Source of the DNA: Ascidiella aspersa
Taxonomy: Eukaryota
Direction of reading: 5' to 3'
DNA length: 64,000 bases
Assembly (NCBI GenBank): GCA_963924565.1
Contig: OZ004609.1
Location: forward strand, 30,814,001-30,878,000
The position numbers and the translations under genes are program-made. A model generated the notes under the pieces. It saw only the letters and a list, made by a program, of their open reading frames with translations, ran no database searches and was not told the origin of the DNA. Numbering within the stretch: the first letter of the stretch is position 1; every line of letters starts with the position of its first letter. Below, one piece after another: positions 17,410 to 60,049 of this stretch.

Positions 17410-17504
17410 TCCTAAACGCCCGAGACCACCGCCGCAAATAAAAAGTCCCGTTTTAAGCGCCAGTCTCCAGACGCGCTTTAACACTTTCCTTCTCTTCCGA
17501 GCAG

Positions 17505-18774
17505 AAACGCGACAAGCCAGCTTTGCCCGCTCTGCTTTCGGATCGCACCAAGGCAGAGCCCAACTACTACTTCAACAACAATGAAGCGTCGGGCGCCACC
17601 AAGCGACTGGAGGAGGACGACGACAAGAAAAAGGGAGAGGACCTCATCGTCAACACCGATCCAGTGGAACCCGCTCCGGAGCAGGAGGAGCAAGGAGCAG
17701 AAAACGCGCTCCTTCCTCAGCCGCTCATCATCGACTTAGAACCGCTCGAGTGTTCGCGCGAAACGCCGCCTCCGCTCGCGAACTTGCGCGAAAACGCGCG
17801 AAACGCCGCCGCTTCGCTGGAGGAGCGCCCGAAGATGGAGGCTGGCGAACCACAAGGGCAGCTGGAATTCGCATCAATGCGCGGAGCCGCCGCCGCCAGT
17901 AGCTTTCAGTTACATAACAGTGCCCCGCGGGCGTCTTACGCAACTGGTAAAGTTATGCAACCTCGGCTCGTAGTACCAGCGGCTGAGAGACGCGCGATCA
18001 AGCCAGATCAGTGCGGCTCAGAAGCCTCGGCCGCTCCAGCTCTCAGCGCCGCCGTCAACTTCGCCGACTGCGCCGACTTTCACGACTGGAAAGGATTCGA
18101 AGCCGACGCCGCCATTTCGGACTGGGCCGACCCGGGACACGACATGAAGCGGCACCACCCCGACTCGACCACCGCCGACCTGCAATGGGGCTGGGTGTCG
18201 CAGACGCGTGACGTCACGCCGTGTGACGTCACCGCCAACCGCTGCTCGTGCGACTTTCTCCCGACTCCGGTGGACCACCACCACCACCATCTCCGACGAT
18301 CCACCGTCAACAATTGCTGCAGCAGCACCCCGGCCGGATGTGACGTGTGCGCGCAAGGCATGACGTCACAAAGGGCGAGGAACAAGTGGCAGCAGGAGTC
18401 GTGGCGGGCGCCCCTCCCACGCTCGCACTCAAGGTCCTGCTTCCGCGCCGCCCACCAGTGCCGCAACCGCCGCCTCCAGCATCAAGTATGCTCCTCCTGT
18501 CATCCGTGCTCCTGTTCCTCTTCGACGTCTTCTCCTACTCAAGAGGCTCCCAGGAGGAGCCGGAGCGCAGTGCTCTTCACCATCCTAGATGAGGACGCTG
18601 TCGAACGGCGTCCGCGCATCCTCGAGTTCGATAACGCTCCGGAAGAAAGAAGGGAAGACGATGGTTTCTCCTCCTCCTCTTCTTGGGACTCGCATCTGGA
18701 CTCTCGCGATCCCCGATGTTACGGATGCGAGCAATGCGACATCAACAGCGAGAGCATGGACTGGTGCGACGAAG
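17505..18774 (+). CDS. SOCS: SOCS gene, large N-terminal coding exon (low-complexity; acidic then Cys/His/Ser-rich)
   Basis: GC-rich open frame of more than 420 codons in AT-rich surroundings. Acceptor ttccttctcttccgagcag|AAA and donor GAA G|gttagc (phase 1), which fits the phase-1 acceptor at 34780 (WCDE-E-FNCTQ). Confidence 0.75.
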
Positions 18775-21700
18775 GTTAGCCCTTTTGATTTTTTGTGATT
18801 TTTTTCAAAGGGCATTAAAACATTAAAGGGAATTTTTTTTCTGATTTAAAGAATAGAAGTAAACTTAGGTACAAGCAACATTGTCCGAATATTGACAATT
18901 GTATGTTGGAAATTTGTTACTGAACAGCGTATTTCAAAGTCACTTGATCCGTTTAGTCTAATGTGTCAGCGGTAGTTAGCAAACTTTTGCACATGTCGTA
19001 TTTACGGCAAATATTTGCGTAGACTACAGATAAATTTACGGTGAGATAAATGTGCAATGGCTGTGGAATTCTTCAAAAAAGAAGTAATCTGGAATTTATT
19101 CTGCTAATCTGCCTTATTTAATTTTTACTTTGGGGTTTAATTTGGGCCTTGTACTAGGTTAGAGGTCTTTATTTGGTAAGATATATTAAAAATAATTTTT
19201 TATTTTTTATTTTTGTAACTGCAGGTCGAAATACCTTTATGGCTCTACCTTAATTTTAGTATTGTTAGAAATAGATGCTGTACGAAAAGGTAGGATTTTT
19301 AGATAATACTGTTTTTCACCAACAGTTTTTAATGTTGAGGGCCTTTCACAAATGCCATCACGTTTGCAATACATTACTGCTGCGTTGTTAATTTACCACT
19401 TTTACCTCCAAGAGTTTAGCCGGTTTTCACCGCCAAAACATTACACTTTCGTGAACACCACAAGTGCTCACGCAAGGATAGTTCAGGAGAGGGCACAGCC
19501 AGTTTAGATAAGGCTGTGGTTCCGGATTTGCACTTCGGTTCGCTGTGTTTACCCGTCTGCCTTAAACACGCACCAATAAGCCAATTGCCATATGCCTGTT
19601 AAAATGTATCTATATGTCTAAAATGCGTCAGGTACTTTGCTAATAGAACTTGAAGTTCGCATTTAACGTTTATAGCTGCCAATTCGACCTGGTGTTTTCT
19701 AGGACGAGATAATTAGGAAACCGATTTGGGCGCTGCTTGACGCAAGAGTGATCAGAAAAGTTTCTTTTCTCAGAATTAGACGTAATGGACTTTACATTGG
19801 TGTGCCTTCTCAATTAATCGGCTTGTTTGTTGGGTGTTATCACAGCTGTACCGCCATTTATTGATATGTGTGTTGATGATTTTAAAAATTACGCAAGTCA
19901 CAAACTACGTCAGTTTCTCCTAATTGCCCTAAGGCTAAGAACATGATTCACAATTCCAAAGGGCTGCGGTCAATACCGGAATTCGCTTTACCATAATGTC
20001 GTTTCTCGGTTTACTACATCACTGTAACTTGGTTTATCAGCTCATTATTTTTACACTAAGCGCGATCGAAGTGTAACGCTTGGCTCAAGGTATCACCGAC
20101 TGCCCCTGGAAATAACAATTTTATGGCTTTTCAAGAAGCGCTTTGAGTCATCTCACTTCCGAGAACTGTTTTTGTTTTGTCGTTAATTTGCGAGTAAATG
20201 TGACGCGGAGCGCCGTAGTATTTGCTCGCTTACCGATCGGAAATTTTGGTTTTCCGATAAGCCTTTGTGTTTGGACCTTTCCGAGAAGCCTTGAGCGCAT
20301 TGTGCGGTTTTTGTGGGAAAACTGAAGCAGGCAAACTGTCAACTGTGCTTTTTAGGTTATGTGTTTCTTAAAAAAAGGAAAACCGCATTAAAAAATGACA
20401 AACAGCTTTCAATTACTGCCCTTCTGCTGAATAATTGAGTACTAAGTTGTACGGAAAATTTCCTTTAGCAACAGAGTTAGGGCTACAGGTTTAAACCTAT
20501 AAACGCCAGGAGGCATCCATTTTGTCCTGTTTGCCAAAGTCGTTGGACTCGTGACCCCAACTTTGCGTGTTTACCCAGCGTAAACCAGGTCTTGCCTTTC
20601 ACCCCGGTTCGTCTGCCCCATTGGCAAATACGCGCTGCAAAGGCCCAACTACTTGAAGCCTTAAACAGGGTGCGAATGTGTGTTGGCGAAGGCATCCTTT
20701 AACTTATAATCAAATCCTGTTTCGGTACTGTGCGCCTCAGGGTGGCGCCCACGAGCTATCGTGTGATCAGTTTTTTTAGGAAAACGACTTTTTAAGTGAC
20801 CCTAAAAACGGGAATATAGCAGCGGTTAAAAGCGCTAATGTTAAAAGCGCTAACGTTGTCGTATGTCGCAAAGCTAGGCGCCTCTTTATCTGTTGACAGC
20901 AATCGGCAACTCTGAAATGTAACTCGCGAAATATGCAAAACCGTTAAAAAAGAAAAAAATCAAGTTCTAGAAAACAATATACTCTGCTCTTAATTAGAAA
21001 ACCATAATTTATTCACTATAACATTTTCACTAGTTTGACAATATTTAACAACAATACTATAGTTTGACAATGTAACAACAGCTAACATGCGTTGGCCTGC
21101 GAAAACCGCCTTCGGATAACTTTCGGCGCAATTATAAGAGAACCGCGCTGACTTTTCGTAGTCTGTTTCTCGCAACGCGAATGCATATGTTCGTGCAACA
21201 GAAATAGTGTGTCAACTTACGCAACCTCTGGCCGATTGGGTTAAATTCGAATCAGCTGGAAATTTCGAGCCAACTCGATTTGGAACGAACCGCGCACGCG
21301 CAAGTCGCATTTGACGCACGCACGTCGATTCGGTGACGTTTTTGCGTCGGTTTCCAGCGACGTCGCGTGCGTGCGTCGGGGCGCCCGAGGCGACGCAGAA
21401 AGAGGGCTATTTTTCGGTCAGCGAAACGCCACCAGTGCGGTGAGCCGTTACCGGCCTTGCGGTTGACTGGCAAACCAGCCTGGTAACATTTTTGGTGATT
21501 TGTGACAAATTTATTTCGTGGCATTTGTTTTGTGCGTTACGGTTTCGCAGTTTTTTGCTCCTGAGGCGCTGAAATTTTGTGTATTAGCAAAAATTTAACC
21601 CTAAATGCTAGAGTTGGTGTTTGTTTGAGCGAAAGACTAGATTTCGGATTTAACTCATGAAAAACGGGTTGTGGGGTTTAATGTAAAAAATTGCTGTAAA

Positions 21701-34300: not shown

Positions 34301-34779
34301 TCAGTTTAGGGTACAAGTCAAAGAGGAGTCACGCGCATGTGTGCAGTGCTATGAGTCGATGCATTTTCGGTATAGGTCACATCTCAGAATGTGGTTGAAG
34401 GACTTGCGCTTCGCTCAGTTCGGACTCCTGCACTTTTAATCCCGAACAAGGACGGCTTCTGTGGCTGTTTTACGACTGTGTGCTTACCAGCGTAGCTCGC
34501 TTGTTTTCTTATTTAGGCGACATCGCCAGAGTCGCTGTTGCAGCCGGTGGGAAAGTAAATATGGTCTCGAGTTGTTCGCTTTGACTCACTCAGTTTACGC
34601 AACGTTAGCGGTCGGTTTGAAAGCTGGTGCTTGTATGAAGTCAGTGTTTTGCCTTGACTAGCCGCGAGAGTTCAGGTTTATTTGTCATCGATTTTTATTA
34701 TTTTATTTGGAAATTAGCTTTAATTCGGCTGCTTGTCTTAGAAAAGAGTTTTAACTTTTGTTTCTTTGCCTTTTTGCAG

Positions 34780-35554
34780 AGTTTAATTGCACTCAAAAAA
34801 GCAGCCACTGTTTTGCGACGAACGCCCACCCGAACAGCGTCAGCATCAGCGATTGTCTTCAATTCTCGAACAACGTCAACCAGCGCGGTTCCTTTGTGAC
34901 GTCACAGCCCGCGTCGCCAAGCATGGCCCCCTCAGTCGGATTCTTCAACCAGGCCGAGTCGCCGGTGGTCGCCCAGCAGCAAAACGGCCACAACAACCAT
35001 CACCAGCATCAACACAACAACCGAAACTCTAGCGCCGCGGCTCAGTGCTGCTGCCGGCGCTCCGCACGCGCCATGACGTCACGCACACGTCATCAGCGCC
35101 AGCAAACGGCCAAGCGCGTCGACAGCGCCGAGCGTCGGCCGGTTGCCTCCACCTCCCTGGCGCATTTCGAACTTTCAAAGCGCTCTTACGCCAAGCTGAT
35201 CGCCTACTGCCACTCGAAGAAGCTGCTAGCCGATATGTACTCGCGCTCTCCGACGCCGCGCTCCAACCGACGCCAGGGCGACTTCATTTCCAACACGCCC
35301 GCCTTCGACGCCGAGCGCCCGCATTCGGATGTTTGTTATTCGGCGGGAAATCGGGACGAGTTTGCCGCAGACGGCCTCGCTTCGAGTCGGCAGAGCAGCC
35401 GCGCCGCAAACGAGATCTGCCGCCTGGCGCGCGTCTTCGAGACCGTGGAGGAGTGCCCGTGGTACTACGGCGCCATGACCGGGCAGCAGGCGCGCCAGAT
35501 GCTGCGCGGAACACCGGTCGGAACCTTTCTACTTCGCGACAGCAGCGACGCACA
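34780..35554 (+). CDS. SOCS: SOCS2/CISH-like suppressor of cytokine signalling: N-terminal region, extended SH2 subdomain and N-half of SH2
   Basis: Acceptor tttttgcag|AG. Encodes EICRLARVFETVEECPWYYGAMTGQQARQMLRGTPVGTFLLRDSS, the typical SOCS SH2 start with an intact FLxRDS arginine. Donor CA|gtaagt is phase 2. Confidence 0.95.
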
Positions 35555-36474
35555 GTAAGTCGAAAAATTTCAATTTTTTTAGTATAAATTGACCTATCAT
35601 TTTCGCGTTATTGGACCAAAGCGGCGCGGCTCTTGACTCTATTGTTTCCCGCTTCCATGAAAAGCGATTTTTGGCGAACAAGCGGCTCGAATTTGACCCA
35701 ATTGTTCGCGGGAAGGTTTATTTCTGGCTAGGTTTCGTGCTTCCTGGTTCCAGATAGATTGTGGCCGCTGAAATCACCACCACCACTAGCGCAGGTGCTT
35801 TCCGTTATTCAGTTCGCGCTATGCGGCCAAGGGCCTGCGTCCTGACTCGGAAATTCAAACACACGGGTTTTCCCGGACATTCAAGGCACGTTTATAACTT
35901 TAGCGTGTTTTTTTTTCAACCTTACCCGAGTTTACAAATAAACGTGACATCTTAAGGGGCCTTTAATGAACTTTTTGTTCTGCGAATAGCCCACCGCAGG
36001 CGAAATTTCCCGAGGGGTATGGTACTTTTTGCAACTGTATTATCTCGTATTAATGCAACTCATCATGGTAGCCGAAAAGTAAGAAATGTTCGTTACAAAA
36101 AATAATTTTTTAAAGCATGTCCGCTGTAAAAATAACACCAGAGAAGATATTTAGGCGGGTGTAGTTTTGTTTCAAGTTTCGCGCAATCGCTTTTGCAGAA
36201 AGTTGCTGCAGCAAAGTTTGCGGCGCACTCGAGACCCGGTCCTTGCGCCAATTCTAAATTTAAAAAGTCGCTCTTTGTCCGATTCCCGGTATTCGAAGTG
36301 CGCTCGTTGCACGGGCGCGACTTAAATCGCCCGACGCCGTTAAGTGGACCGATCGCATCGCGCCTATATATGTATATGTGAAACAAAACGGACAAAGCGC
36401 TTGGCCGCGGCCGCGCTCGAGTCCCAACAGTCGTTTTCCAGGTAAAATAGCGCTCTCGTTCGAGTTTAAAAGCT

Positions 36475-38744: not shown

Positions 38745-40900
38745 AGCAATCGACTCCTTGGACTCTCCCAGCGGCGGCAGCTGGCGCTATAAGTGGCCCG
38801 TTTGTTGATTGCGCCCCTCTTCGACGAAAAGCGGACTTTCTGCGGCGCGCCAAACGTGTCAACGGCGTCGTCGCCTTCCCAAACCTATCGAGCAGAGGCC
38901 GAACGTTGACTTCCCAGCTCTCGCAAAAAATCGATTGTTATGCAACAAAGGCGAGTCCTGTGACGTCAGCCGAACGCCCGCGGCGAACTTGTCTCCGCGT
39001 GACCGGGCGCTAGGCCGAGCACTCGCGTCTTATATAAGTCGCGAACGGCTTACGTAACTCTTAATGGGCGTCGTCGAATGCTCTTTAAGTTTGCCGTTCT
39101 TGGAGAGAGTTTTTTTTTGCGTTATGAAACGATTGTTTTTGTGCTTTAACCCTGTCGCGTTATGCTAGGCGGAAAACACCCGCTTTGGTCTGTGGTAACG
39201 CAGAAGAAGTCGCGTTTCCATACGAATCAATTTTTGATTTTATTAAGCATTCACTGGCAAAGCGTTTTAACACGTTATTGCTATCATCCTATTTTCTTAT
39301 TTACAAAAGTTAGCGACGCCGGACTTTATATATATACTGCTGTTTAATAACAAAATGTCCTATCTGTTCTCTCCTTCCAATGTAAACTTTGCGCGATTAA
39401 AACAAGTAACGTTTGTTCCGCCAAGAAAGGTATTAATAAAAAGTAAAATATTTCTCCAAATAGAAACAAAGTTGTAAACCGCCAGCCGCCCAAAAGACGG
39501 CTTATTGCTTGAAAAATCTTTACCAGTTCCGCATACACACACACGAAACGTCTTGGGGTTTCCTAAAACCTGTTTTTGTTGTTGTTGGCTCCACTGGATG
39601 CGAAAAAAAAACACTGACCCTAGCTTCCTGTGCCAGCTTTCCCACCAACACACAGCTTAGGACTCAATCGCCCCTTTGAACGAGCCGTAAAAACGATCCG
39701 CACTTCCCCGCTCTTACTGCGAACAAACCCGGACGCCAGAATCCGAAACTCGCTTTCAGAAAACGCCGAAACCTCGCGACACAATGGACCGCTGTGTCGC
39801 GCGCGCTACACGAGAAAGCGACACGATTGGCCTTTTCCGGCTTCGAGTTCGCGTCCTGAGTGGCGGAAGATGACCAGAGGTCGTCTGATCCTTTACAATT
39901 TCCGTTCCGTATCGAATTAAAAGTGAAGTGAGGTCGTGGATTTGTTTTCGACCCCATTGCGGTTTAAAGACTTCACTCGGGTTCTGTTTGAGCGTTTATA
40001 GACATCGGTGAATGTGACTAAATACAAGTTCATTACCTTTGAACTCCGAGAAAAGAACAAAGGCGCGTCGGGACAAATCAATTTCGTCTCCGAAAAGTGT
40101 GTCACGGTGTTGTAAATGTCGCTACGTCGTTGGCAGAAACAAAGGTAGACGTTGCAGGCGACAGTGTAAAATACGACCTTGCTAAGCAAAGCCCAAGGTT
40201 AAATAAATCGATAGAAATAACAGCAAAGAGCTGTTGCGGCCATTTAAAGAGCTCGGAATACTACGCGATTCCCCTTCCCGACTGCGAATTACACGGGAGC
40301 TAGAAACAGCCGTAAATCAGAAGCGAGCGAAATCGCTGCGACCCTTGGCCGTTCACACCACAGCCGCCGCTTAAAGAGCGTGGGAAAATGCGCCCGTGTT
40401 TGCGAGGCAATAGCTAGTCGCAAACACCATATGTGTGCGCTCTTGCTGTAAAAAGCGTTAGAATACAGGCATAAGGGAAGTTTCGAGGAAAAACACCCAG
40501 GCAGACGAAAAGGGCTCTTAAGTTCAAAGCGCATTCCGTACTTGAAACTGAAACCAAACGCCCGCGTAAAACTTATATATTTCGTTTGACAACAGAAGTC
40601 CCACTTTAAATAGAATTTTGATACTTAGCTTAACCTCCTATTTTTATCACTGAACGGAGCGAAATAACGCGATTTTTTTTTTTTATAACGGTAATAGCTC
40701 TTGTGTCTACTAAGCATATCACCTTAATGTTGGTTAACCGAAGGCTCTGTGTTACCTAAGACGCTTAACGAAACCACACATTCTTTTGACTGGACTTATT
40801 CGAGTTTTTCTATGTACTGTAACGTTTATAGTTAGTTTACCGTTTACATTATAGACATTAGATTTTTACCGGTTTCTCACCTTCTCTTTTCTTTCCTCAG

Positions 40901-41435
40901 GCACCTGTTCAGCCTCAGTCTTATGTCGAAACGCGGCGCCACCAGCATTCGAATGGTGAACACCAACGGCAATTTCCACTTTGACTCCGAAACCGACGAA
41001 AGCACCGGCAACGGCAAGGGCAACCCTTCGTCCTTCAAGTCCTCCGGCTCAGCGAGCGACATCCGCCGCTGTGTGGTCCGTATGATCCTCAGCTACACCG
41101 GCTCGTTGTCCAAGACGCGCCGCCCAGCAATAACGCAAGCCGCCGACTCCGCCGCACCACCTTGTGGCGAAGAAACTGCGAGCGGCGCCGCCGCTAGGGG
41201 CTCGTCGTCTGAGCGCCAGTTCCTTTGCTACTGGATGGACCAGCGCGGCTCGCGCAAAGAGATCCCGATCAAGCTGGCGAAGCCCCTGGGCGGGCAGATG
41301 ACGTCACTGAAACAGATCAGCCGCGCGTGCCTGAACCGCCACGCGCGCTTGTGGGAAAGTCCCGAGCGGCTGGCCTCCCTACCCCTGCCCCTGGCGCTAA
41401 AGAACTATATTCGAAAGTACCCCTACCCCGAGTGA
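40901..41435 (+). CDS. SOCS: SOCS2/CISH-like last exon: C-half of SH2 and SOCS box
   Basis: Acceptor ctttcctcag|G completes RDSSDAQHLFSLSLMSKRGATSIRM. Ends with SOCS box SLKQISRACLN...LPLPLALKNYIRKYPYPE and TGA. Confidence 0.95.
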
Positions 41436-43916: not shown

Positions 43917-46282
43917 CATTATCACTGTTTTGTAAAGCATTACATATGTTTTCAGTAAAGCGTTGTATTATTATTAGAGATACGGACGATAAAGTAATGC
44001 AGTGATCGGGTTAAAAAGACACCAAATTTAATTAGACACTTAGGGAGACTTCTGCTCTCTGTATATTTAAAAAACTCTGTTACCACCATTCGGATTAATT
44101 CCCAAGAATATTGGTATTCTTGCATACTATTAAAGTTTGCAAATAGACGTGTTCTCGTTTCCTGAATTTCTTAACGTGGTTGGCGATGAAACCAAAGCAA
44201 AACCCCGGTACAACATTTAAGTATAATATTTGAATACTTTACAAGAAAATTAGAAACTTATCGCAATGTTTTATTGGTTTAATTTTTGTGCAGGATACTT
44301 AAGAGCGTGAAAATATGATGGTTTTATATGTAAGGGGCTGTTTCCGCTAGGATGTTGCAAGAAAACTTTTCGGGCCTAGGGTTTGTCATTGAACATAGAT
44401 TACAATACATAGCTAACATTTATGGACGTATTTTCGTTAAGAAAATTGCAAGCACAATTTGTTTTATTTTAAATTAATTGCAGAAGCAGGTCAACTTTAG
44501 GCAGAGCTGCGGAGTCGGATTAATACTGAAGTTCGACTAAAAAAAAAATAAATAAATAAAGTCGCCCAACCACAGCCAAATTAAGCGACTTGGGCTCCGA
44601 CTTACATTAAATCCACTCTCTCACATGGGCTGAAAATATTTCACACTATGCCATTCCACTCTTACGATTTACAGTTTACGGTCTTTTTGGTTATAAACTT
44701 GCTAATGGACAAGCGCACGTCGGACTTGAGTAGTTTAACCTTGTCTTATTTCGAGTCAGGCAAAATAATAGTGTCTCGCTTGCGTTGTTTAAAGTAGATT
44801 GTCTTTTGTGTTTGTATGAATAACGGGTGTTAAAATCTTGTTTAAACATCGAAATAAGATATTCTAACTACGTGCACCTCAGCTTTTTAACTACCCTGAA
44901 GGTTGAAGCAATTAATCTTCTAGTTTGGTAATTTCAATGGCTTCTTTAGGTAAAGCAACTTACCTGCTTTCTAATTTGTGCATTTATTTTGCGAAAACGA
45001 CCTTTTTGCTTCATCGTAAACGAGTAGTAAAATATGACCCGAAAACGAGTGGCATTTTGACGAGGCGTTCTGAACTTTTCTCAATATGCGTTCGGGAGTA
45101 AATTGTATGTTTTATAACTTTGCTGACGAAATATGTCGAGGTAGGTATTGGGGAGTTTTGGGCCCTTAGCGTCAGCACAAAATTCCGGCAGTGGGTTTTA
45201 AATGGCGGGAGGTTTAAACCGAATATCCACAGCTACACGAATGTATTAAGACATATCTTTATTGAGTCCGAAACCAATGACAGTAGTTTCTGCCTGTCAG
45301 TAACTGGTAATGCGTACAAAACGAAGTAAATATCCAATGTTCAAAAAACCTGCGTAACATGCCAAGTCATACGTGGACAATTATAAGAAATAGCTTTTTA
45401 TATATTATCCGACTGTGCAGTAGAAAAGGCAGACATGAACACCAGTTTTCTGCAGTACGTATTGTTCGTATGAAGTTCAATTATAAAATACATGAGGGGT
45501 CCAGTAGTGTTTCGTGTAACATAAAAAAGCAACAACAGTTCAAACAACGAAAAGCAAATTTCATTTGGGTTACTTTTACAACCAAACATGATATTGCCAA
45601 TAAAAATATAACACGGCTACGATTTTTGTAACACTCCATTAGTTTTGCGTATTTTAATAAAAAGAGGTCGACAGTGTATGTATATTGTATATGCAACATA
45701 CTTTAAGAAGCAGAGCCACTTGTGCGAGAAGGTTTCCCCAAAACTAGAACACTATTTTACGCCCGATTAAAACTTTCTAAGCAGAACAACAGTCAAGGCT
45801 CAATACACAACAAATAATGGTAGAAACTACTGGTACTAAAGTGTGGGCAGTGAAATACATTAAAGCAAGCATTATAGCACTTATAATGCAAACCAACTTT
45901 TCGGACTTTCCAACGCTCCATGACACAATTAGGATCGTTTGATCGTTTCCAATATTACACAATCGTAAGTTAAATTTGCCCAGTAGACTGAATTACAACT
46001 GTTACTGCTTTTCTCAACATAAAAAACATTTTTGGAACATAAATTATTTGCTAAGAAAACAGTCTTTCTTATGATTCTCATAGTCGACGCATATACAAGT
46101 GAAATTTACAAACATTTCACTTGCATACAAGAAACCAACAACTTATACAAAAAAGGCGCTACAACTTAGAAAAAAAACGGCAGGTGTTTTGGCAAGCAAT
46201 AAAAAAAGTTCTTTACCCGAAACCCGGAAAAGAAATCGTAGTCTGGATTTACAGTGTCGGCAGGGTCACTTTTACGGGGCCG

Positions 46283-46483
46283 TCACAGCACCGGGCAAGG
46301 CTTGTCAGGCTTGAACGGGTTGGCTCCTTGCTTGGTGACCAGGTAATCGTTCAGTTGCTGCGTGTTGCAGTAATCTACCAGTTGTTTGGCCGCCGTCGAT
46401 ACCGGAATTCTTTCAACACTGTTCTCAATCCGCAGCTGCTGCACTTGCTTCTCCATCGCTTGTAGGCGTTTGTTGTTTGACAT
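46283..46483 (-). CDS. GNG: Heterotrimeric G protein gamma subunit (paralog A, 66 aa)
   Basis: GGL-domain pattern VQQLRIE..ERIPVS.AAKQLVDYC...DYL...NPF with C-terminal CaaX box CPVL. A 5'UTR acceptor (ttcttttcag) lies at 46557-46558. Confidence 0.96.
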   Translation of the reverse strand: MSNNKRLQAMEKQVQQLRIENSVERIPVSTAAKQLVDYCNTQQLNDYLVTKQGANPFKPDKPCPVL

Positions 46484-48138
46484 TTTTACCAGATTTTTTT
46501 GTTAAAGTTTTAAAAGAAACAACTTAGTTGGGGAAGTAGTAAAATAATATGCGGATCTGAAAAGAAAATCAAGTTTTTTTTTATATTATAAGTGGCAACT
46601 CTTAAAATAGAATATTCAGAATCCCCCCTCCCCTCTACGCTCGAACGTATGTTTTACGTCTTTTGTCTTTTTGGACCGGTTAGGCAAATATATTCAGCCC
46701 AAAGAAGCCGAATTTCAATCCCCCTTTCAAACAAAAATCTTGGATGTAATCGAACAAATTTGAAATGACGTATGTTTTAATCCAGTCTTTTAAAATAAGT
46801 CCAAGTCCAGCCTTTATCATAGCACGTCAAGCCCATGCCAAGTCATTATAACACAAACTATATAGTTGGCAAACTTCACCAATTCTCAGTCATATTCTTA
46901 ATAAATAACAACAAAAACGAAACATGTAGCGACAAACGGTTTTACTTGGCAAATTACACACAAACTATATAACGGTTTTACTTGGCAAATTTAAATATCA
47001 GGCAACAACTCATAGTCACCGCGTTTACCGAAATGACTTAGTCGAAACAAGCCAGTTGTTTAAAAAATTAGTTTAAGTCAGTCGATTTGCGATTAAGTTA
47101 TGTCACGCCATTTAAAAACAGTGACTTTAGTCGACTATCAAGTCATTGATGTCAATACAACACTCCAAATTTCTCGTTGTTTATTGACTTGTCGCGACAA
47201 CTGTGATTTAATTTAGTTAATGAACTTAGGCATATCGTACCAACTTAAATCACATTGTCAAATCGATTCTCATTCACTTGCTGTTATATTCATTAAACTG
47301 TTTCGAAACACAATTTTATACACCTAATATTGACATTTTACGGGACGTTAACGTAGAGCGACATGCGATCCAAAATACGTCATAAAGCAAGTGCTATTTT
47401 TACCAGAATTTCCGGTATCTTAAATTTTAATCAACCGAACCCAAATGTCATTTAATGAGCCTCCGCGTGTATTTAGCACAACCTCAAAAACATCGCTAAA
47501 TTTACCAAACGACCTTATTGCCCGGGCAATCTATTTCCAAAGCCTTTAACACACGACGCGTAAAACTCCGTAAAAACGTGCCAGAAACAAAAACCCACGC
47601 AATTCGATTCGAATCAGAACACGAAGAGTCGAACACCTACAACAGCAGCGTTAGCAAGCAAAACAAAAGCAACCAACTGCGCCAAACAGCCTCAGGAATG
47701 AAGGTGTTTTCGTTCGTTGCTGTACACTGCCTCCGTAATTGCCCAGGCTTCGGGGGTACGGATTTCGCTTCGAGCTTCGGCCGCGGTTTTGGTCGCGATT
47801 AGAAAAATAATAAACAAGCGCCCGGATTTTCGCCATCCTACACGGAAACTCGCTCAGAGCGAGAAAAAGTGCTCTGGGCCCGCCGCGCCATTCGGTTTAG
47901 ATTTGCTGCTAAAAAGATTGAACCAATTTCGAAACCTATGGTTGGACGAAGAACTTTCGTCGACAATATATATCTCGTACAGCGATTCAATCCAGCGACC
48001 AGTCAACTGACTAGCTTTAGACGTATGGAACTGATTTTGTTAACATATAAATATATATATTTATTTTCTAAGCTGTCAATCGTTAGATTTTAATATCTGA
48101 AATGCTGTCCCGTATTACTTTTAACCTGATGGTGTATC

Positions 48139-48442
48139 CAGGGGTAGCCAACACGTCGATCGCTATATTTCACCTGGTCGATCGCGTCGAATATGTGTTA
48201 CGTACTCATTACAGTTAGCTTTCGCACACAAGTGAAACTATAAAATGACCAATTGTTGTCTAGACAAGCCTAATAAAGCGCTCTTTGACGTAATAAATCA
48301 ACCTCTATCGCTGGCTTGGAATGCAATTAACGCTCAAAAATTTTAATAAGTGTTCTTGTGACTTTTTCACTAAACCAGTCGATCGAGAGTCTATAAAAAA
48401 TATCTCAGTTGATCGCAAGCAAACATAAGTTGGCTACACCTG
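48139..48442. mobile_element. hAT-like MITE
   Basis: TIRs CAGGGGTAGCCAAC and GTTGGCTACACCTG with internal GATCG repeats. The TSD is degenerate. Confidence 0.65.
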
Positions 48443-50773
48443 GTTATACAATACTGTAAATGGCTACCTGTTTCGTTTCCGACAATGTACGGGGACTACG
48501 GCGTCAGGCCATATGTGAGCACAACCGTTCTGAACAAGAAGCTGTCTGGCACGGATGCAAAAACTCAATTAAACTGCCACATAAGGACTGCACTGTGGTT
48601 TGCTCTGCTGGACGAGAAGTATGTATATTTCAGACAACATTTTCGATAAACGCGTGCCGTAATTCTGCCCTGAAACAACCTTGTCACCGCGGAACTAAAC
48701 AGGTTAAATGCGTGGCATATTCGGTAGAAATGGAACCTGTACAACACGGACAGGTTCAGTGACGGCTAAATGGAAGGCTTTACACATTTCACGACACTGC
48801 CTGAATTCTAATCTCCGCTATCTAATGATTTGTATCGATACGGAAGGCCGTTCGATCAAGCGTAGCAGGGGGTAGGGAGAAAATGTCCGGTGAATCTAAA
48901 GGTCACTTCTCACTGTATGATTTCAGTCAGGCTCGCTGTGGACTGCATCAACATATCAAAATAAACTTGACTTATAAACTTATAAACATGTACTTCGGTA
49001 CAAACTCGCCCCTGAGCTGAAAAATATCAACGATAAAAGGATTAGAGTGAGTAGATGGTTTGTAAGTCTTCTTTTCTCAATAAAAACACTGTGTAATTAA
49101 TGGCAATCTCTTATACAGGGGCGCCGCTTTGGATATTTGACCACTGCGCCTAAACAATACTAGAAAGTGACACTTTTTTTCTGTACAAACACCTCTAATT
49201 TCATGATATGCCGTTGAATTGATTTTGCTGAATAACAACAAAACATTTTCAAGTGCTATATAGGACAGTGCTCGAATGAAACTGATAGTACTCCGCTCGT
49301 CATACGGTCGCTTCCAGTTCTTAAACAGAGCGCAAAAGGCCATCTACCAGGAAGTATGCGCTACGCGAAGCGACACCACTGTGCTAAAGACTGCAAAAAG
49401 TCAGAGCACGACATCTCTGTAGAGATATGCCCGTTCCTTGTGTGGCTTATGCTGCGCGCATGTTGAGTTCCTTGTATCGGCGAAGGCCAATTTAGGGCAA
49501 CAATGAAAATCCCGTTTACAAGTCTTAAAATTTACATACTGCACCACGCATTGGCATCACAATGGAATCTCTAGCGATTTAATCTACTGTTCATGACGGA
49601 GTGCACGTTCTCCACCGTCGCTGTTGTTCAGACATCTGCGTGAACAGTGTTATAGTTTTTAAGACCACTTCACATTTCGTTCAACAATATAATAAACGCC
49701 TGCTTTGGCGACTGGTTTCTCTGATTGATAAGACTAACCTCCGCCGTTAGACACACACTACATAACACTACGCAAAGAGGCTGGATCGTTACATTACAAT
49801 ATTGTACCAAATGATGCTTTTTGTACGCGTTTCAACATAGCAATAACTCTTAACCCATGTATGATTCTTAAAACCGCATCTGTCGCCCGTAAATTTAGGC
49901 TATACCGGGCCTTTAAATTTAATATACCGGGCCTTTTTCTGAATAAATTCACCTTTTCATCACAATTACCAGCCCAATTCTGAAATCCATAGTTCTTGAA
50001 AATCTGCTCGTACGCCTCTTTGGAATATGACCTCTGTGGAAAGTGTGGTGTTCAGTCGACAAAGCAATACATCTCGATAAGCGCTACACTCGACAAGCGT
50101 TGGCGCTTGGCGTGCACTCGAGTCAAAACCTTCACAGGAAAACAGCGGTCGCTTCACCTTTCCACGGTTTGGCCGATTTAAATACTCGCCTTTCTCTAAG
50201 TGTCTGTCGGTGTCAATCCTGTTTTCCAAAGGTTAAAACATCATTTAGCGCAGCCGTGTAAACCTACCAATGTTGAAGACACAACGGCAAAAAAATGGCA
50301 AATTCACCACTTGTGATGTGGCCACGTAAACTGCGTTGGTTAATCGGCGTGTGCGCCCTGAAAAGTTTTTAGGCGAGCGAAAAGTCAATCGGAAACAATC
50401 GACCAGCGCTCTCCCACGTTCCTTCGTCGCCATGACGACCGCAAGCAGCAGCAGCCGTGTTTCCCGCCAAAAGTACTCGCCGATGCGTCGAAGCGTGACC
50501 GTCCGACGAGCGAGAGGCGTGTATAGTGGCACAATTGGAAAGGGGGGGTGTAAGTGGTTGTAAACGTCCGGACTTATCTCCTAGATAACTGTACGGCTTT
50601 ATACGAGCGACCATTGTGTTCGTTAAGCGTGCGGTAAACTGGCGAACGTCGCGGCATTTAGCGGCCCTTCGAACAGCTAAGAACCGCAGCTGGACAAAAA
50701 ACTGAGGCACAACTGATTTTTTGCCGTCCTGTTAGTTTATGGTAATCCTGGGGTACGTTTTTTTCAACCAAGA

Positions 50774-51098
50774 CAGTGTTTCTTAACCTTTTTACGACCG
50801 AAAAACAAAAGATTAGGTATAACAGAAAAGCTTGGCCGACCCAATTCAACTTTTTGTAAGCTTAAATCAAACGAAACATAAGAAAATGCCATAAAGAGAT
50901 TCGAATTTAATTAATAATTATGATTTTTTTCGTATTATGATTTTTTTTCGTATTTTTTTCTCAAATATTGAGAAATCGTGTTCTAAACTAATGGCAATCA
51001 ATCCATTCAGAATTTAGATAAAACTACTGTAGTCGGCGCCCCAACTAATCCAACGGCCACCGAAGTTCGGCTCGCAGCTCATGGACTGAGAAACTCTG
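50774..51098. mobile_element. Degenerate hAT-like MITE
   Basis: Termini CAGTGTTTCTTAACC and ACTGAGAAACTCTG. No clear TSD. Confidence 0.4.
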
Positions 51099-52357
51099 CA
51101 CTATAAAGTACAGATTAAATCATACAAAGAACTCAAGCTCGGCAATGATTACATTTTGTATTACCGTCCATAAGGTCATCTGAAACGTATCGTTTAGCTA
51201 TTGTTTAACTTTAAACGGACATCACACACCCTAAAAAATGTGCAGCCTGTTGTAAGTGTAATACTTGCAGGACGAAAAATCCACCCATCTCAAGACTTTA
51301 GCATTTCCATACATAAAGCTTTTCCTCAAAAATCGTTTTGTGCGATGCTATGTGTTGTGTTGACAAAATTAGTCTAAAGGTTTTCTCAATTTTCTAAAAG
51401 AATTGACTAAGTCAAGCAACAACACTTCTACGCTTTACACGAGGACAACGTGTTCTTTATCTACCATTATCGCGAACCAAGTGCTTGTCAGATTACCTGC
51501 AATACATTTGGAGTCTGCAACACAAAAACTTCAGGCGAAACACGTTTTATTCGAGCCTACAAACTGACCAGTTTACCAGCTGCAAACAAAATCGATCGCA
51601 AAAAGCCCACGGAGAGCGAAAACGAAAACTTATCTGTGCACGGCAAAACTAATGCTGCCTGCAGCGCCCCGTCGCTTATCTGGTAAATCTACTGACTGGG
51701 ATATAAATGCACACAGCTCCGAGAATCTGACATCACGTTGTCCCGGAAATGCGCAGATAGAGACCACAGGCCTTAAAACGGTCTTTTCTCTCCGAAGCAA
51801 ACCGACGTGCGCTGATATCAGCAAAATCAGGATGAACAAATTCCAGCTACTGCGCCATGGGCTACTGCAGAAAACTAGCAGAAACGAGGTTACAAATTCC
51901 GAAACCGAATGCCGAAGAAGCAACGATTACTGTTGGCAAAGTAGTACCGAAATATGCAACAAATTGAGCAAATTCTACTTCTTCAAATCGTCCTGCCTTT
52001 TGATACTTAAAATCTGTCAATGCACTGATATAATACACATCAACAGTAACCGTTCGCACAAAACTTACTTGGTGATCTGTTTCGTACAGCATTTTCATCG
52101 CCCTTCCACAGGTAACAGAACAACCCGAACCAGCAGCGCAGTAAAGTTATTTACCTTCCCCCTCGCTGTCTATCGCCGCAACTCTTTTTCCCCGCGCTCG
52201 CTCTGACGTGCAACAATGAAAATTGACCCAAATTGCGAAGGCGATCAAATTTGGGCGAAGCGAAACGACTTTGCCCTGCGATCTAACGAGCCTTTTGCCG
52301 CCCGACGACCGACGCTAACTAGAAACGGCGAACTACAGCAGGTCACAAGTTTGTTGC

Positions 52358-52750
52358 CAGTGGCGTAGCCAGCCGAAAAATTGGGTGGGGGATAAAAAAT
52401 TTGAACTTTTTTTGTTTAGCTTTTGCCATTGTGTGAACTGCCGTATCTAACAAAAATAAATATGCTAGCAAACCGTTTCGAGCATCAACTGACTGAGTTT
52501 TAACGCAATGCTTTAAAAAACATTCAAAGAGCAGAAAACAAATGAACTAAAAATTAGTAAAGCTACAGATTAATAAGCATAACAAACGTAATAATAGCTA
52601 CATCGTTTGTGACGTAACAGTGTATGACAATTGAAGGTGTGGTATGCCTTTGATCAATTGTTGTACTGCTCATAAATGCTACAAAACAAATTTTTAGAAG
52701 TAAAAAATTAATATTTTTTTTTTGGGGGGGCATGGCCCCTGTAGCACCAT
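52358..52750. mobile_element. Degenerate non-autonomous DNA-transposon-like repeat
   Basis: Begins CAGTGGCGTAGCCAG...TTGGGTGGGGG and ends TTTTGGGGGGGCATGGCCCC, a terminal pattern common in invertebrate MITEs. The right TIR is not intact. Confidence 0.35.
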
Positions 52751-55700
52751 TGGATAAGTTAGCAGTCTAGCAGTTTGTTGCAAGTGTGCGGTGCAAACCG
52801 AAGAAACGGCATTCCCAATACTATTTTTGGTCTCCGAAATTTATAATATTTGTGTATGTATAGCACGGTAGTCTCTTGTTAGCAAATCGAAAAACATAAT
52901 TGGCTCGGTTAAATGGCCACATGTTTGGAAATTACTTAATCTTTTACTTACATTGTGTAAAAACGTTTACGCCTATGTTTGTTGCCTGAGCAACGCGTTC
53001 GTCGTTTGGATGACGTACGCGCCTTAGCACAAGCCTATTTTCATCGATGATCGTCGAACGCGCGCAATTACGTCTTTACGGCTCTGTAGTACCGCGCTAT
53101 ACCTAAACATTTCGGGCCACCACGACTGGTTCTACTACGCCCGCTACGTACGCCATTCTTATTTAGCTAGCCGCTGACATTTCGAGCGTTAGATGGCTAT
53201 CTTTGAGGCCTGTCCTGTTCTCTTTAAAAGTAAAATACGTTCCGTTTAGAGTCGAGTATGTATGCTTAGACTCTGTGATTAATATAAACTTATATAAAAA
53301 GTTGACCAAAGTTGCTATCTGAATAAGTATAAAGTTGCCACAGCACACTTTTTGTGTGAAATTATTTCTCAAAACCGTCTTTAGGAAATTAAAAAAATAA
53401 ACGACTAGCAGAGCTGCAGAGGTGAACACTATGCTTCAGTGTAAACAAGAAAACGTTTTAGGCTATTTCAACAAACAAAAAATAACCCTCGTTTCTATCT
53501 ATTCGCCCCACTAGCTTTCGCATGCTATACAGTAGCACAATGTTATTACAACAGCTCAGGACAAAAACTATATCGAACTGCGGGCTAACCTTTAGGCAAA
53601 ATTCAAATGGCATCACGATGTGACAGCCTCAGCTGCACTTTGAGCGACCGATGCGATCAGCTTTTGCTTTTACTAGCGCTGCGCTCTGCCGTTTTGCTGC
53701 CTAATGTGCGATCTGACATTATGCCGCGGCTTTACGCTAAAAGCGTAGAATCGGGACATCGCTAAAGAAAGAACAGAAGCGAGTTAGCTGGCTGTGAGGA
53801 TTTAATCGCTTAAAAATCGCCCCGTGACTCTATAAGAACGGTGTTCTTTTGCGTGAAAGACGAAAGACCATTGGTTGTGAACCTTAGTAGTGTAATTTTC
53901 CTTTTTTCTATTCCGAGAATTAAGACCCTAAATCTATTTAATTATTATCATTGATTTAAAATATCTAGGACGACCTTTGAACATTTGAAAAGTCTGGTTT
54001 ATCGTATTTGCTATAGTCAGCGTTGGGTGATAGCATCTTGTATTACTGTCAAGCTACCCCCTTACAACTGTCAAATTAGCCCGCTGAGGGTAGGTAAAAA
54101 ACACGCGTTAAAAATAAGAATAAAAGGTGTCCGTTTTTGCCCATGGTTGGAATTGATTTTCGTGGCACTATCCATGTAGGTCCCCGACCCGTCCGGCTAA
54201 ATCTAATCAGATGACCCCTGGGAAAACAACCTGTCGGATGCCGGCTAACGCCGCGCTATCACAATACGTGTTATCGCTTTTCACATCACCAAATGCTTTT
54301 TTCATCACCAAAGGCGTCGAAATAATTGGTTACCGGAAGCTGGGTGTAGTTTTAACGTCGGAATTGCGTGGAGTTGATAACTATTTATAAAGGCTATATA
54401 TAGTAGTTATACAAATATACAACCTTAAGTCGAGAGGGTGGTTATATCCAGGGAGCTTTTATAACACGAAGTGAAGTTAACTAATCTTTTCAGTGATATA
54501 ATTCGAATTCTCATTACTCTCAAAGGATGCTTTTAGTTTTCGAACCAGGTGTATTTTTTTCTATGTCCTTGAGCGAAACGGCATACTACTAATATTTTCA
54601 ACACCTACACTAATTTAAAACAGCATGAAATTACCCCGCTTCCTTGGCTTTTTCGCTTTCTGGACCAAATGTTTTTGAGACGGCTGAAAGTTACAATGCT
54701 CAGAGCTACATAACATAGCACGTATCATATACGTTTCACATTCACTTGAAAACTTTTCTATGTTTCTACGAATTAAAGCGCTTTCCCGTAAAATAGGCAA
54801 CCCGGCCGGACAAGCAGTTGCAAAACGTTTATAATTTCCTGCCTTTTTCGTGACACTCTCATGATTCTCAAGAGCCCACGCCCGTTCAGCTACAAAAGCA
54901 GGGCAACGACAAATCAGGCGACTCTGAGATTCGATCGTATCGAGCATTGAAGGCGTTTAGTGTGCTGCGCCTCTGCTCGTCTTCGAACCGTAAACATCCT
55001 GATCTCTAGCGCGTCGACGTCCATGCTTTAGCGAATCGGCCTGGCGAAGCTATGACGAACTAAGCACGCTATAGAGAGAGAGTGGTTTGTGGGTGAGTGA
55101 AGGCATGAGAGCGCGTTCGTTTCATGACGCTACTATCGCCCGGCGCCACTAGAGCGCCAAGAATCAAAGGGCGGAAGTGACGAGGGGAAGTCTTTGGGCC
55201 TCATACGCGAGTCACGTGGTGGGCGAGCGGGGTAGGACCAAGGGGTCAGGCGGCCGATGCCCAGCAAAATGACTGTTTTGCTTGCTTGCACAATAACTGT
55301 TTTGCATACACGATAATGCGCAGTGGCGGTTTGTTACGAAGGTTAATCAGCAGGCTCGTTTAATGTGGGATCGAAGGTTTGCTGCAAACTCATTCAAGGT
55401 CCTTGTATAATGTCTGTACTCTGTATGTAAGCAATTTGTCTGCGGTCTTTTTTCCGTATAACATAATTGAGCATTAGGGACGGCAAGCCACTATATCTTG
55501 AGCAGTTATTAATGCCGATTGACTGCTTTTACTTTTCTTTTTGTGTTTTTTTCTTGAGCTTAACGATTTAAACATAAACAACTATACTCGAAAGGCGCCG
55601 GGTGAAAATCAACGTAACCCTTTTTACAATATTGAAAACTGTCCACAATTGCATATATAAAGCAAATAAATTTTATTTTCCCTAATTAACAAATGGACAC

Positions 55701-56926
55701 ACTGTAAAACTAGGCATAAAACTCGAGTATTCACAGACACCCACAGGTGGCAACAGTGAATGCATTTCCTGCCTTTTCTGATGCTCTATTTTGACGATAC
55801 GATAAACAGTAAAGTTAAAAGGCGTGTCCAAAGGACCTTTGCCCCATTTCCTTCAACGGCTATTAGGATGCTTGTGGCTTCACTGGGATCAAAGAAAGTG
55901 AACAGACATTTTGATTAAAGTTCTTAATTTGGGCATGTTTTAAGTTGTCTTCTGTTTTGAATAAGCGTCAACACAAGCACAAAGAATCTAGACTGCTGTA
56001 AAGTTAGCAACTTTAATTCACTTGTGTTGTTATGGGAATATAATATGTCGCCTCTCTTTTAGCCACGTGCTGTAAAATAGCTTACTGCCTATATAGCTGC
56101 ACTGTTTACAACAAGAAGTTGAAACACTTCATTACTTGCTTGTTGGAAGATAAGCTGTTCGCCAGTTCCGCGCAGAAGTTGATGTTTCCTGCGTAAACCA
56201 CATGGTCATATTACGCATGTGTTGCCGATTTGTTACAAGCGCTTTAGTTTAGTAGATAGGTCAACGTATGGAACGACAATAAGGAAAACGCAACATTTCT
56301 GTAATATTTTGCAACGAATCACCCCCGTTTCTATATGACTAATTTATTTTCTTTTATTAGCGATATAGTGCTGTCACATCGTAGTACTTAATTATTGGCA
56401 CACTTGTTACAACGAACAACAGCTTTGCTTTTTAAATTGGACTATTTCCGTATCACTAATTTGCATGCAATTAAAACAACTTAGGTATTGGATGTAGTCA
56501 TATCCGTCATTTTAATAGATTGGATATAGATCACATTATATAGTGTTGTGCTGTGTTATTGAACATTATCTTTACGTATATGCCATGCTGTGAATAATTT
56601 TTTAAATTGGAATATGCGGGACTTTAAACTGTTTGTAGACTTTTTTCAAATCATATAAATGCTATTTTTGATTGCTATCTAATAAACTTAATTTGTGGCA
56701 AGTTCAATTTTAAGATTGTTTCAATAAAAAATCATTACAATGACCAAAAAACGAAGCTTGCACAATTTTATTGTGGCTCAATATAATTCGCAGTGGACTT
56801 GGCGAAGCAACAAAGCGCGTACATTCGCAACAGAGAAAGTTTGGCAATCATCGGAAATAAACGAGAATCAGGCCGCAATTCAGCTCTGTTCGTTTTTACG
56901 GGGCCGCCTGGGTATTTACAGGGCCG

Positions 56927-57139
56927 TCACAGAACGGGACACGGCTTGTCGTTAATGTGATGGTTGACGGCGCTGGGAGTCTTAGTGATGAGATAGTCGT
57001 TGGGCATTTCGCTGTTGCAATATTCGACCAGCTCCTTGGCTGCCACCGAAACTGGTATCCGCTCGATGTCGCACTCGAGCCGCAGCTGCTGGACAACTTT
57101 TTCGAGGCTCTGCATTTGCTGGCGCTCCTTAGTGGCCAT
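56927..57139 (-). CDS. GNG: Heterotrimeric G protein gamma subunit (paralog B, 70 aa)
   Basis: VVQQLRLECDIERIPVSVAAKELVEYC...DYLI with CaaX CPVL. Clear paralog of 46283-46483. A 5'UTR acceptor (cgctttccag) lies at 57221-57222. Confidence 0.95.
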   Translation of the reverse strand: MATKERQQMQSLEKVVQQLRLECDIERIPVSVAAKELVEYCNSEMPNDYLITKTPSAVNHHINDKPCPVL

Positions 57140-59925
57140 CGCGAGAGCTAGTTGTTTTGTTACAAGGACGATAAGGTCATTGTTGCCATAATATGCCCTT
57201 AATGGTTACCTAAGCAGGACCTGGAAAGCGGATGGTTTAATTAGTCACATTTTTGATAAACCTGTGTGGCATTTTTTTAGGTCATTTGGAATGAAAAACA
57301 ACTTGAAAAGGAAAAATATCGCGCTACATAATGACCGGAGTACAATAAAAAAACAGATTTAAGTTACGTAATAGCCTATAATTCCAATATAATAAAGATT
57401 ATTTCGATGGGTTTGCTTTCCTCTATTTCATTTATCTATTCATTACTTTCTCTTATTATATTTTCCTATATTCGTATAAAATAAAAACTTTTGCAGTAGC
57501 TAAAGGCGATAGGTCTACCAGCGATGCTGTACTTGTAGTTTTGCAGGTTAGGTCGTGGCATAAGACTAAGTAATGCTGTATAGTTTGGAACGAGAAACGA
57601 TGATCGTGATGTCTTGAACGAATTCCTACTTTGCACAGTTAGTCTTGCCAGGTTTTAACATAAGCAATCGGAGCAGAAAATAAAACAAGGTTAACATGTA
57701 AGCTGGAATACTACATCGGGGCAACTTAATATTCCACATTTTTGTTTGGTTAAATACATATTTTACCACATTCTAAATTAAGTAAAAAATTTGATTAACA
57801 AAAATAAAAAGATGCATTTTCGCCAACGGGAAAATATAATTATCAACTTTGTGCTCTCAATACATGCTAATTTGAAATATTACAAATTATTTTAACTCGT
57901 GATCAGACCTATGCAAACCTTTGTTTTTGTTGCTTTGCTAAAGTTAATTTATCAGCTCTGTATTGCGTCACCAAACGTTGTTCAACCATGATTGACGTGC
58001 CAGCCTTGAAATTCGAAACAGGAACAGTTCCTACAAACGACTTAACGCTTTAGGGAAACGTCATACATGACATTTAGCAAAGGGGACCTTCCTTAAACCA
58101 ACATTTCCTGTGACGCCACAGTCATAATTTAGAAACAGAGCCAACGCTTTATACTTTTCAACCCTTAACTTCTAAGTACTGAATGCCAAATTGATATCAT
58201 GACAATGAGATATTCAATTGAAAAAGGTGGTTTTGAAAACAGATAAACGATAACTTCTTCTGAATGAAATGCAAGCAGGAATACCAAGGGGTTAAGTTGA
58301 ATTTCGCCTCTTTAGCCGTGCATAGCATTACCTTTTAAGTTAATAGCTGGTCCTAACTTCTATTTGCTATTTAATTACACGATAAAAAGTCACAATTTTT
58401 TAAATAACTTACCCGCGTTTGAGAATCAATATTTTATTGAAATAACTGATTAAACTTTCCTCATTTTTACGTCGATTTAGTGAATACATAAAAGCTCTAC
58501 CATTAACCTTTCTTTGTCAAAGTGTTTTACATTTTCTATGGTGAAAAACACTTTGGTAAAGTATTCGATGGGCAATTCAATTTAACTTTTCATTGACTAA
58601 TAGAAGCCTGCTATGTCAAACCTAGTTGCGTGCTCAAATAGGCGGAAATGCAATGTGGGCTGGGTGTGGACTGTTGTCTATCTAAGCAGTCTCTGCCTCT
58701 TTGCTGTTAACGGGGCCAAGCATCATTTATTCCATTAGTGTCAACTTCCTGGAGTGTACAAAATTAAGTTTCACAAACCGAAGGTCACACGTCATATTTG
58801 TTGTTAGATGCAGGCTGAACTCTTATAAATAATTAAAGAAGCCTTACAGAGATAGCTCATTTGTTTAAATGGGATAATGTTTAGCCTATACGCTATTAGG
58901 GAGAACAGGTATGGTTTTAAAATATGTATCTGCTGCGTTTTCCTTGGGGGTTAACCTAATGGCAATACACATATCAAAATTATCTGCAAGTATGAATAGT
59001 TTCCAACATATAACAAGCACAATTTGGCGAAATTTTAATCTTTTTTTCAAGCTAATACTTGCTATAAATCGTCAAACTCTAACATCCTGCATTTGCAACA
59101 GACTGCCGTATGCCTTCAAAATCGAGCAAGATAGTATAGCAGCAACTGCAGTCTAAGCACCACGAAAGTCGGCTAGCTGCCCTACAAGCCTAATAGAAGC
59201 AAGCGGTTAGAGTCAGGCCGACTGAACGTGGTATGCGTCTTCTCGGCAGCTCTGCGAGCGGATAATGATGCGACGGAAATGACGAAGGAATTAGGCCTTA
59301 ACGACAAGCCTTTGCTCTGCGCTGCGCTTGATTGCGGATGAGAACAGTTTGCTTATTGTACAATGCCAACAGAGCGAAAATGGCCTTCTCAAACCGCAAT
59401 TAATCTCGAATTGTAACATAGACAGAAACTAAAATGTATCAAGTCGGTCAAAGTGGGGACTCGCCTTGGAACAAAAAATAATACGAACAACACAATGTCC
59501 GATTTCGTAATATAAATATTAGTCTGGCTGTGTACGATTTAGAGATAAAGTTAACAACAATATTTTAGCTCAAACGTAATTCCGTAGGCTACTTACTAAC
59601 TTGTTTTGTGTTTGCAAAACCTTTACACCTTAAAATAAAACACATATTTGTGCTTTGCGACACACTTATCGTGCTGCAAGAGTTGAACTTTTAGCCTGTT
59701 TTTCTGCGGGGTTAAACCTATAGATTTCCTTATGCAACCAAAAATGTGAGAATTCAACAATCGCGTAATTTAGTAGGCCTACTGTGAATGAATTTTATAT
59801 TTTTACACGTGGAAAATCAACAAATTGGAAAATGTAGCACTATACAAATATACAAATACACAGACAATGACGAGAAGACTCCATAAACCTTTGCCGACAA
59901 ACTCCTAAAGCAACTTGGTAAGATC

Positions 59926-60049
59926 TCAGTTATGCAGAACTGCCTGGATTGCAATACAAAAATTTTCCATTGCTATTTTTAACTCAGTAGAGTTATAAAA
60001 GGCGATACTCAGGCGAAGACAGTTTTTGAAATCGCCCACCACAGATGAC
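59926..60049 (-). CDS. PLP-dependent aminotransferase last exon
   Basis: Acceptor tttatgcag|G. Encodes SSVVGDFKNCLRLSIAFYNSTELKIAMENFCIAIQAVLHN then TGA, including the conserved RLS arginine of fold-type I aminotransferases. Confidence 0.9.

Follow-up and report, generated by a model that had tools for sequence, protein, structure and literature searches.

The window, a stretch of 64,000 nucleotides on contig C3 of the Ascidiella aspersa genome, contains two intronless genes on the minus strand, here termed paralogs A and B, that encode G-gamma subunits: both translated coding sequences carry a GGL domain (Pfam PF00631) and end in the CaaX box CPVL. The coding sequence of A (46286..46483, minus strand) specifies 66 amino acids (PF00631, E 3.7e-15) and that of B (56930..57139, minus strand) 70 amino acids. 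A search of the 309-Mb genome revealed six G-gamma matches, and a GH6 match over the cut-off agrees with an ascidian origin. One of these, paralog C (L002, G000:C3:5568437), is 89% identical to A and also lies on C3, at a distance of ~25 Mb; it has a two-codon insertion and a terminal CPFL, and its amino-acid changes lie mostly near the C-terminus. A further tandem G-gamma pair, L004 and L006 (G000:C2:38.98 Mb), is spaced by 4 kb, and the N-terminal half of L006 is divergent. L038, a distant G-gamma gene on a metagenome contig, groups with L004 at 99/98 support.

Comparisons were limited to four sequences of close kinship plus a single distant gene. A relative, termed organism C, was represented by runs X6 and X7 from one sample; X1, X3 and X9 are other samples of the same species as the window. 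No orthologue of B more than 80% alike was found in organism C, sample X5 yielded nothing further at A, and viral and prokaryote collections contained no orthologous DNA, while a metagenome scan for such DNA gave at least two near-identical loci among the matches listed. Protein relatives P0001-P0005 are known as protein sequence alone. The 5′ flank of paralog C is closer to the organism C gene than the flank of A is.

RNA reads of run X9 span both A (19 reads, no splice joint listed) and B (16 reads), and their first mates all map to the plus strand, which in most stranded libraries denotes minus-strand RNA; A and B are transcribed on the gene strand. By read cover, the 3′UTR of A (45400..46282, minus strand) measures at least ~880 nt, with a gap at 45859-45909 and a possible contribution of reads from paralog C. 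Upstream of A, TACTKGGCAAAT-like words (46863-46995) include a perfect 21-nt direct repeat, and 46668-46745 matches several organism C contigs, so that it may be repetitive or a word that recurs in promoters. The 9-mer GCATATTAT is common to A (46544-46552) and B (57189-57197), near the 5′ ends of read cover. Elsewhere in the window, the plus strand carries a SOCS-type gene with an SH2 start and a SOCS box (34755-35555 and 40836-41432) and a 440-codon open frame lacking a Pfam match (17457-18779).

The UGA stop codons of A, B and C are each followed by two copies of the 12-mer CGRCMCYGTAAA: copy 1 starts immediately at +1, copy 2 at +24 in A and C and at +21 in B. The stop of A (46283..46285), copy 1 (46271..46282, +1..+12) and copy 2 (46248..46259, +24..+35), all on the minus strand, are unchanged in organism C. 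In B, the stop and copy 1 occupy 56915..56929 and copy 2, at +21..+32, 56895..56906 (minus strand). In all three genes the second copy is out of frame and has no stop before it. The two stop contexts quoted in the initial annotation lie exactly in the window (A, 46271-46288; B, 56915-56932; minus strand; two matches compared to 0.01 expected), and its description of four synonymous differences ahead of the stop and 11/12 identity behind it was correct. Where A and B encode the same residue, just 16 of 37 third positions agree, so that the probability of an 11/12 post-stop match is ~0.001, and that of a 10/12 match ~0.008. The statement that both paralogs read UGA-CGG applied to A and to B of the assembly, but not to B in X1, X3 and X9. 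Position 56924 carried the other base in all three further samples of the species that cover it (X1 contig, X3 contig, two of two X9 RNA reads), so that B in these samples reads UGA-CGA and matches A at 10/12 positions. Overall, UGA-CGG is present in A, C, organism C and assembly B, and CGA in the other B samples (3/3) and in L038.

The motif was not found in the three remaining G-gamma genes of the genome, where the best match had five mismatches. L038 starts with UGA-CGA and has one copy of the 12-mer at +49 with a single mismatch (6/3000 shuffles); the similarity of its UTR as a whole to those of A, B and C was not significant (21-154 of 300 shuffles). Two further colinear short words that L038 (1717-1860) has in common with the UTR of B were likewise not significant (24-37 of 300 shuffles). 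In these G-gamma genes every copy of the 12-mer is on the sense strand and at most 60 nt from the stop, and the sequence upstream of A and B contained no copy. Further downstream, the conserved word TTGCCAAA (46188..46195, minus strand) has TGCCAAA in common with B and C and is a candidate miR-96-family or DNA site.

Outside the G-gamma genes the 12-mer is near background and it is not a genome-wide element: it occurred 47 times compared to 22 times for the control, in part within repeats, and together with a stop 65 times compared to 69. A genome-wide regulon was therefore rejected, as the counts with a stop are at control level. Among 27 loci examined, eight lay near a gene placed by Pfam, with the 12-mer in sense orientation at three and antisense at five. 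The two further exact 15-mers belong to coding sequence read in a different frame, one in the C-terminus of ATP synthase gamma and one in a receptor tail. The latter (L044:1501-1515) lies in the final codons of a gene that resembles a receptor and has NxxY motifs, and a second 12-mer-like copy (L044:1588-1599) follows ~60 nt past the stop of this frame. A search for the tandem 12-mer pattern returned, among the matches listed, mostly one satellite (113 matches compared to 5 for the control, all but 13 listed), a 30-bp repeat at G000:C3:28.33-28.34 Mb with more than 90 copies among the matches listed.

The organism C contig aligned to 46172-46486 with 17 differences and one gap, and 14 of the differences were listed. 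The coding sequence differed from that of A by at least 11 changes at ~38 synonymous sites, with all 11 listed changes being synonymous (0.29 per site), whereas the 81 post-stop bases differed by three substitutions and one indel among the differences listed (Fisher p 5e-4, based on 14 of 17 differences). This contrast indicates that purifying selection on the post-stop bases is real. A and C are identical at 88 of 104 positions over +1..+120 and at 17 of 30 thereafter, and a second block of ~70% identity follows at +241..+330. Nucleotide conservation is thus raised over 100-200 nt after the stop, with a constrained block of ~120 nt (46160..46282, minus strand) defined by A/C identity and, up to 46172, by the organism C alignment.

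Conservation of this kind might be a neutral leftover, with tandem duplicates sharing bases by descent or gene conversion and having no function. Across the stop, 33 of 36 bases of the organism C orthologue are those of B, for which conversion is a possible cause, and B tolerates a G/A polymorphism at +3. However, changes between species are about fivefold rarer in the block than at synonymous sites, and C has kept it despite its ~25 Mb distance on the same contig. The contrast with organism C largely refutes a neutral origin, which we regard as very improbable.

The selection acts on nucleotides and leaves no codon signature. The initial annotation had suggested looking for codon-like substitutions in an alignment of orthologs, and these are absent. 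Between A and C, pS is 0.37 and pN 0.06 in the coding sequence, whereas pS is 0.15 and pN 0.18 over codons 1-25 of the extension; in organism C, all three post-stop substitutions are non-synonymous in the readthrough frame, and no change occurred in 17.7 synonymous sites of the extension where five were expected (P 0.002). These codon-type tests are based on few changes, 13 and 3, some of which are common to both comparisons. Together with the organism C contrast, the pS/pN pattern means that every reading of the block has to include constraint on the nucleotides.

The initial annotation proposed that readthrough of UGA yields a non-prenylated G-gamma with a hydrophobic tail. According to this possibility, which we regard as a serious though less likely rival of an mRNA element, UGA-CG and the 120-nt block would let a few percent of ribosomes continue and bury the CaaX box. 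The stops of A, B, C, organism C and L038 all have the context UGA-CG(G/A), which keeps readthrough plausible, and this context is absent from the other three G-gamma genes of the genome (0/3). Frame 0 after the stop is open for 38, 35, 52 and 38 codons in the four genes with the motif (shuffle P 0.12, 0.13, 0.08 and 0.14, with A and C not independent) compared to 11-12 codons in all three others. In A, B and C, frames +1 and +2 are closed by the TAAs of the motif itself, in A by those of copy 2 and copy 1, respectively. The CGG/CGA variant of B is silent in the readthrough frame. Apart from a run of T, the indels measure 3 and 12 nt between A and C and 3 nt in the linker between A and B, the latter depending on the alignment. 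All these features support readthrough.

The 38-codon open frame described for A exists in the assembly allele, where it is closed by a TAA at 46166..46168 (minus strand), but beyond codon 27 the tail depends on a run of seven T (46201..46207, minus strand). C, organism C and the single X9 RNA read over this position have one T fewer. At 46210 and 46243 that read has the letters of A, and X9 contributed no read less than 90% alike; it therefore does not originate from paralog C. The extra T in A may represent a minor allele or else a mistake in the assembly, and the predicted hydrophobic tail, which depends on it, is not supported. In the short-T allele the frame instead runs to RFFSKL-TAG, with Ser-Lys-Leu-TAG at 46159..46170 (minus strand) being in the coding frame with the shorter run only. 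The same TAG ends the extension of C, which terminates in CKF, and the identity between A and C drops at this second stop, as would fit a translated extension; B uses a different stop, and assembly A differs by the 1-nt indel. The 52-codon open frame of B (56768..56926, minus strand) ends in EPQ, which is not a targeting tripeptide, and that of L038 in CVR, so that the extensions of A, B and L038 have neither length nor end in common.

SKL before a stop is a peroxisomal targeting signal (PTS1), and this end arose in 1 of 4000 shuffles; ends of the type [SAC][KRH][LM], the consensus of PTS1 variants, arose in 10 of 4000. The readthrough product of short-T A might hence go to peroxisomes, while that of B would merely lose its anchor. 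We assign the peroxisomal version about a third of the weight given to readthrough, and it is improbable that readthrough cancels the CaaX anchor, exposes SKL and sends a small G-beta/gamma pool to peroxisomes. Such a swap of CaaX for SKL would be driven by an unstructured, duplicated 12-mer that closes both wrong frames. A match to Pex3 in the genome, weak although over the cut-off (E 9e-4), is in line with it. On the other hand, SKL was noticed after the fact and seen in short-T A alone, an allele known from one RNA read and the relatives, whereas the assembly allele is frameshifted; the organism C alignment stops at 46172, just ahead of the tripeptide. G-beta/gamma is not known to have a role in peroxisomes. 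The term 'peroxisom' is also absent from the accessible text of PMC9678972.

Readthrough in general is further supported by viral UGA-CGG sites with nucleotide conservation over 100-200 nt, as described in the available portion of PMC3159437. Such sites typically have a stem 7-12 nt downstream, and no supported counterpart was detected in A, B, C or L038. None of six folds gave a favourable z-score, nor did folds omitting the ribosome footprint: values ranged from +0.5 to +2.7 for A and from -0.94 to +1.3 for B, C and L038, so that among these few sequences no stem past a 7-12 nt spacer had a z below -0.94. The post-stop region of A folds less than its shuffles, and those of B and C are not unusually unstructured. 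A consensus fold of A, C and organism C contains a small hairpin near +50 (-8 kcal) with two one-sided changes. The lack of a stem counts against readthrough, as do the absent codon signature and the stop context, since the efficient cellular context is UGA-CU(A) and not CG (PMC4207609, PMC4132726, as far as accessible); UGA-CUA(G) does not occur at the stops of A, B, C or L038.

Several other candidates were rejected. A hairpin over the stop of A is broken in B and C. An Rfam scan of 44000-60000 (E ≤ 5) returned one sub-threshold snoRNA match and neither a SECIS element indicative of selenocysteine nor another family. For a splice donor in GTAAA, no joint was listed in X9, where the depth is 1-5 reads. 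For +1 frameshifting at CUG-UGA-C a frame of 9-10 codons exists, and four of five A/C changes in it are non-synonymous by hand count. The Pumilio consensus matches copy 1 of B alone.

The block might alternatively function in the DNA as a cluster of transcription factor sites. Since A and B are small and intronless, it lies ~300 bp from the start site, and YGTAAA resembles forkhead or posterior-Hox cores. Upstream of A there are three TACTKGGCAAAT-like words, and the 3′UTR has a further one in inverted orientation (45970-45985) that C and organism C retain; the variable C/T of the motif is a CpG/TpG exchange. Yet the copies of the 12-mer are all in sense orientation and within 60 nt of the stop, with none upstream of A or B, and the features of the reading frame would be unexplained. 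We consider action as DNA unlikely.

It is equally improbable as a neutral origin that the motif pairs with or mimics helix 17 of 18S rRNA, or that it is a miRNA site. The T form of copy 1 is identical to ten consecutive bases of the 18S rRNA of the species (nt 502-511, L071) in the 3′ strand of helix 17, and pairing of this helix was proposed for leaky contexts in the part of bioRxiv 2021.04.18.440353 available to us. However, the C form disrupts the pairing, the other copies match at 8-9 of 12 positions and the match was found post hoc; the ten-base identity is probably due to chance. With respect to miRNAs, TGCCAAA, present in A, B and C, corresponds to the miR-96/182 seed site, and no gene of the miR-96 family was found in the genome by searches that were insensitive. 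Ascidian miRNAs with a matching seed appeared only as low-read predictions in the accessible supplements of PMC5399378 and PMC2884542, and the available text of PMC5831862 gave no match, so that a well-supported one was missing from these sources. The binding element named in the initial annotation as the alternative to readthrough gained somewhat, as it fits the duplicated, displaced copies better than readthrough does.

In our judgement, from which the odds of all readings derive without computation, the best explanation is a stop-proximal mRNA element in the 3′UTR that is bound by a putative factor, and we give it about an even chance of being correct. The two unstructured copies of the 12-mer and the flanking conserved words would bind an RNA-binding factor. 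This factor would control how stable the mRNA is, or how well it is translated, for an ORF of 66 codons followed by a UTR of at least 880 nt, e.g., by protection from nonsense-mediated decay or by translational control. Nearly all protein would end in CPVL and be geranylgeranylated according to the X = Leu rule given in the accessible text of PMC9678972, and the leaky-looking UGA-C would simply follow from the position of copy 1 next to the stop. That the block works as RNA, that a protein binds it and that decay or translation is affected are all proposals. Stop-proximal protective elements are known (PMC6277124, available part), and according to the same source low readthrough itself protects from decay, so that such an element and readthrough are not exclusive. 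Against the mRNA element, the 12-mer is not widespread in the genome, copy 1 lies under the terminating ribosome, and bona fide readthrough genes are likewise conserved at the nucleotide level after the stop (PMC4132726, as far as accessible). It also leaves unexplained the open frame 0 in all four genes with the motif, the indels of 3, 12 and 3 nt, the A-C drop at the second stop and the SKL end.

The post-stop element is private to the G-gamma family, selected and of a known general kind. For Ciona, two G-gamma subunits were reported in the available part of PMC2752167; GGL domain and CaaX box are alike, whereas A. aspersa has at least six genes, and the post-stop motif is present only in the A/B/C clade and L038. 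In the sources covered, which were other than subscription journals and bioRxiv supplements and in part incomplete, no description of the element was found under the motif, readthrough with CaaX or G-gamma, or ascidian readthrough. Likewise, the sources covered outside subscription journals, some of them partial, contained no precedent for a readthrough switch from CaaX to another signal. Were readthrough to occur, the locus would be a stemless UGA-CG site in a cellular gene, at which translation switches between prenylation and either none or peroxisomal import, with mutually exclusive C-terminal signals.

The following comparisons refer to the accessible parts of the cited papers. The UGA-CUAG genes OPRL1, OPRK1, AQP4 and MAPK10 (PMC4132726, PMC5100048) also have UGA-C across paralogs and conservation of the next 12 bases; here, CG replaces CUA, a coding signature is absent and one allele is frameshifted. 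Type II viral readthrough in VEEV, CTFV and tobraviruses (PMC3159437, PMC13517186) resembles the locus in UGA-CGx and ~100-200 nt of conserved sequence, in contrast to which the stem is unsupported, a long functional downstream ORF is missing and the motif is repeated out of frame. With the peroxisomal readthrough isoforms of LDHB, MDH1 and fungal enzymes (PMC4207609), one allele of A shares SKL-stop at the end of an in-frame extension; however, G-gamma is a signaling subunit and not a metabolic enzyme, the context is not UGA-CU, and the CaaX box would be cancelled as well. Finally, the RSV element bound by PTBP1, the TRAM1 element and the unstructured region of TCV (PMC6277124) are similarly located directly after the stop in a long 3′UTR and act as nucleotides, and nucleotide constraint in the first 100-200 nt of a long UTR is found here as for these termination-proximal elements. 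Different from them, the G-gamma mRNAs carry a specific, duplicated 12-mer instead of a pyrimidine tract, and factor and effect are putative. At a minimum, the block is a small element next to the stop of chordate G-gamma mRNAs that is under strong selection and, it appears, new to the literature.
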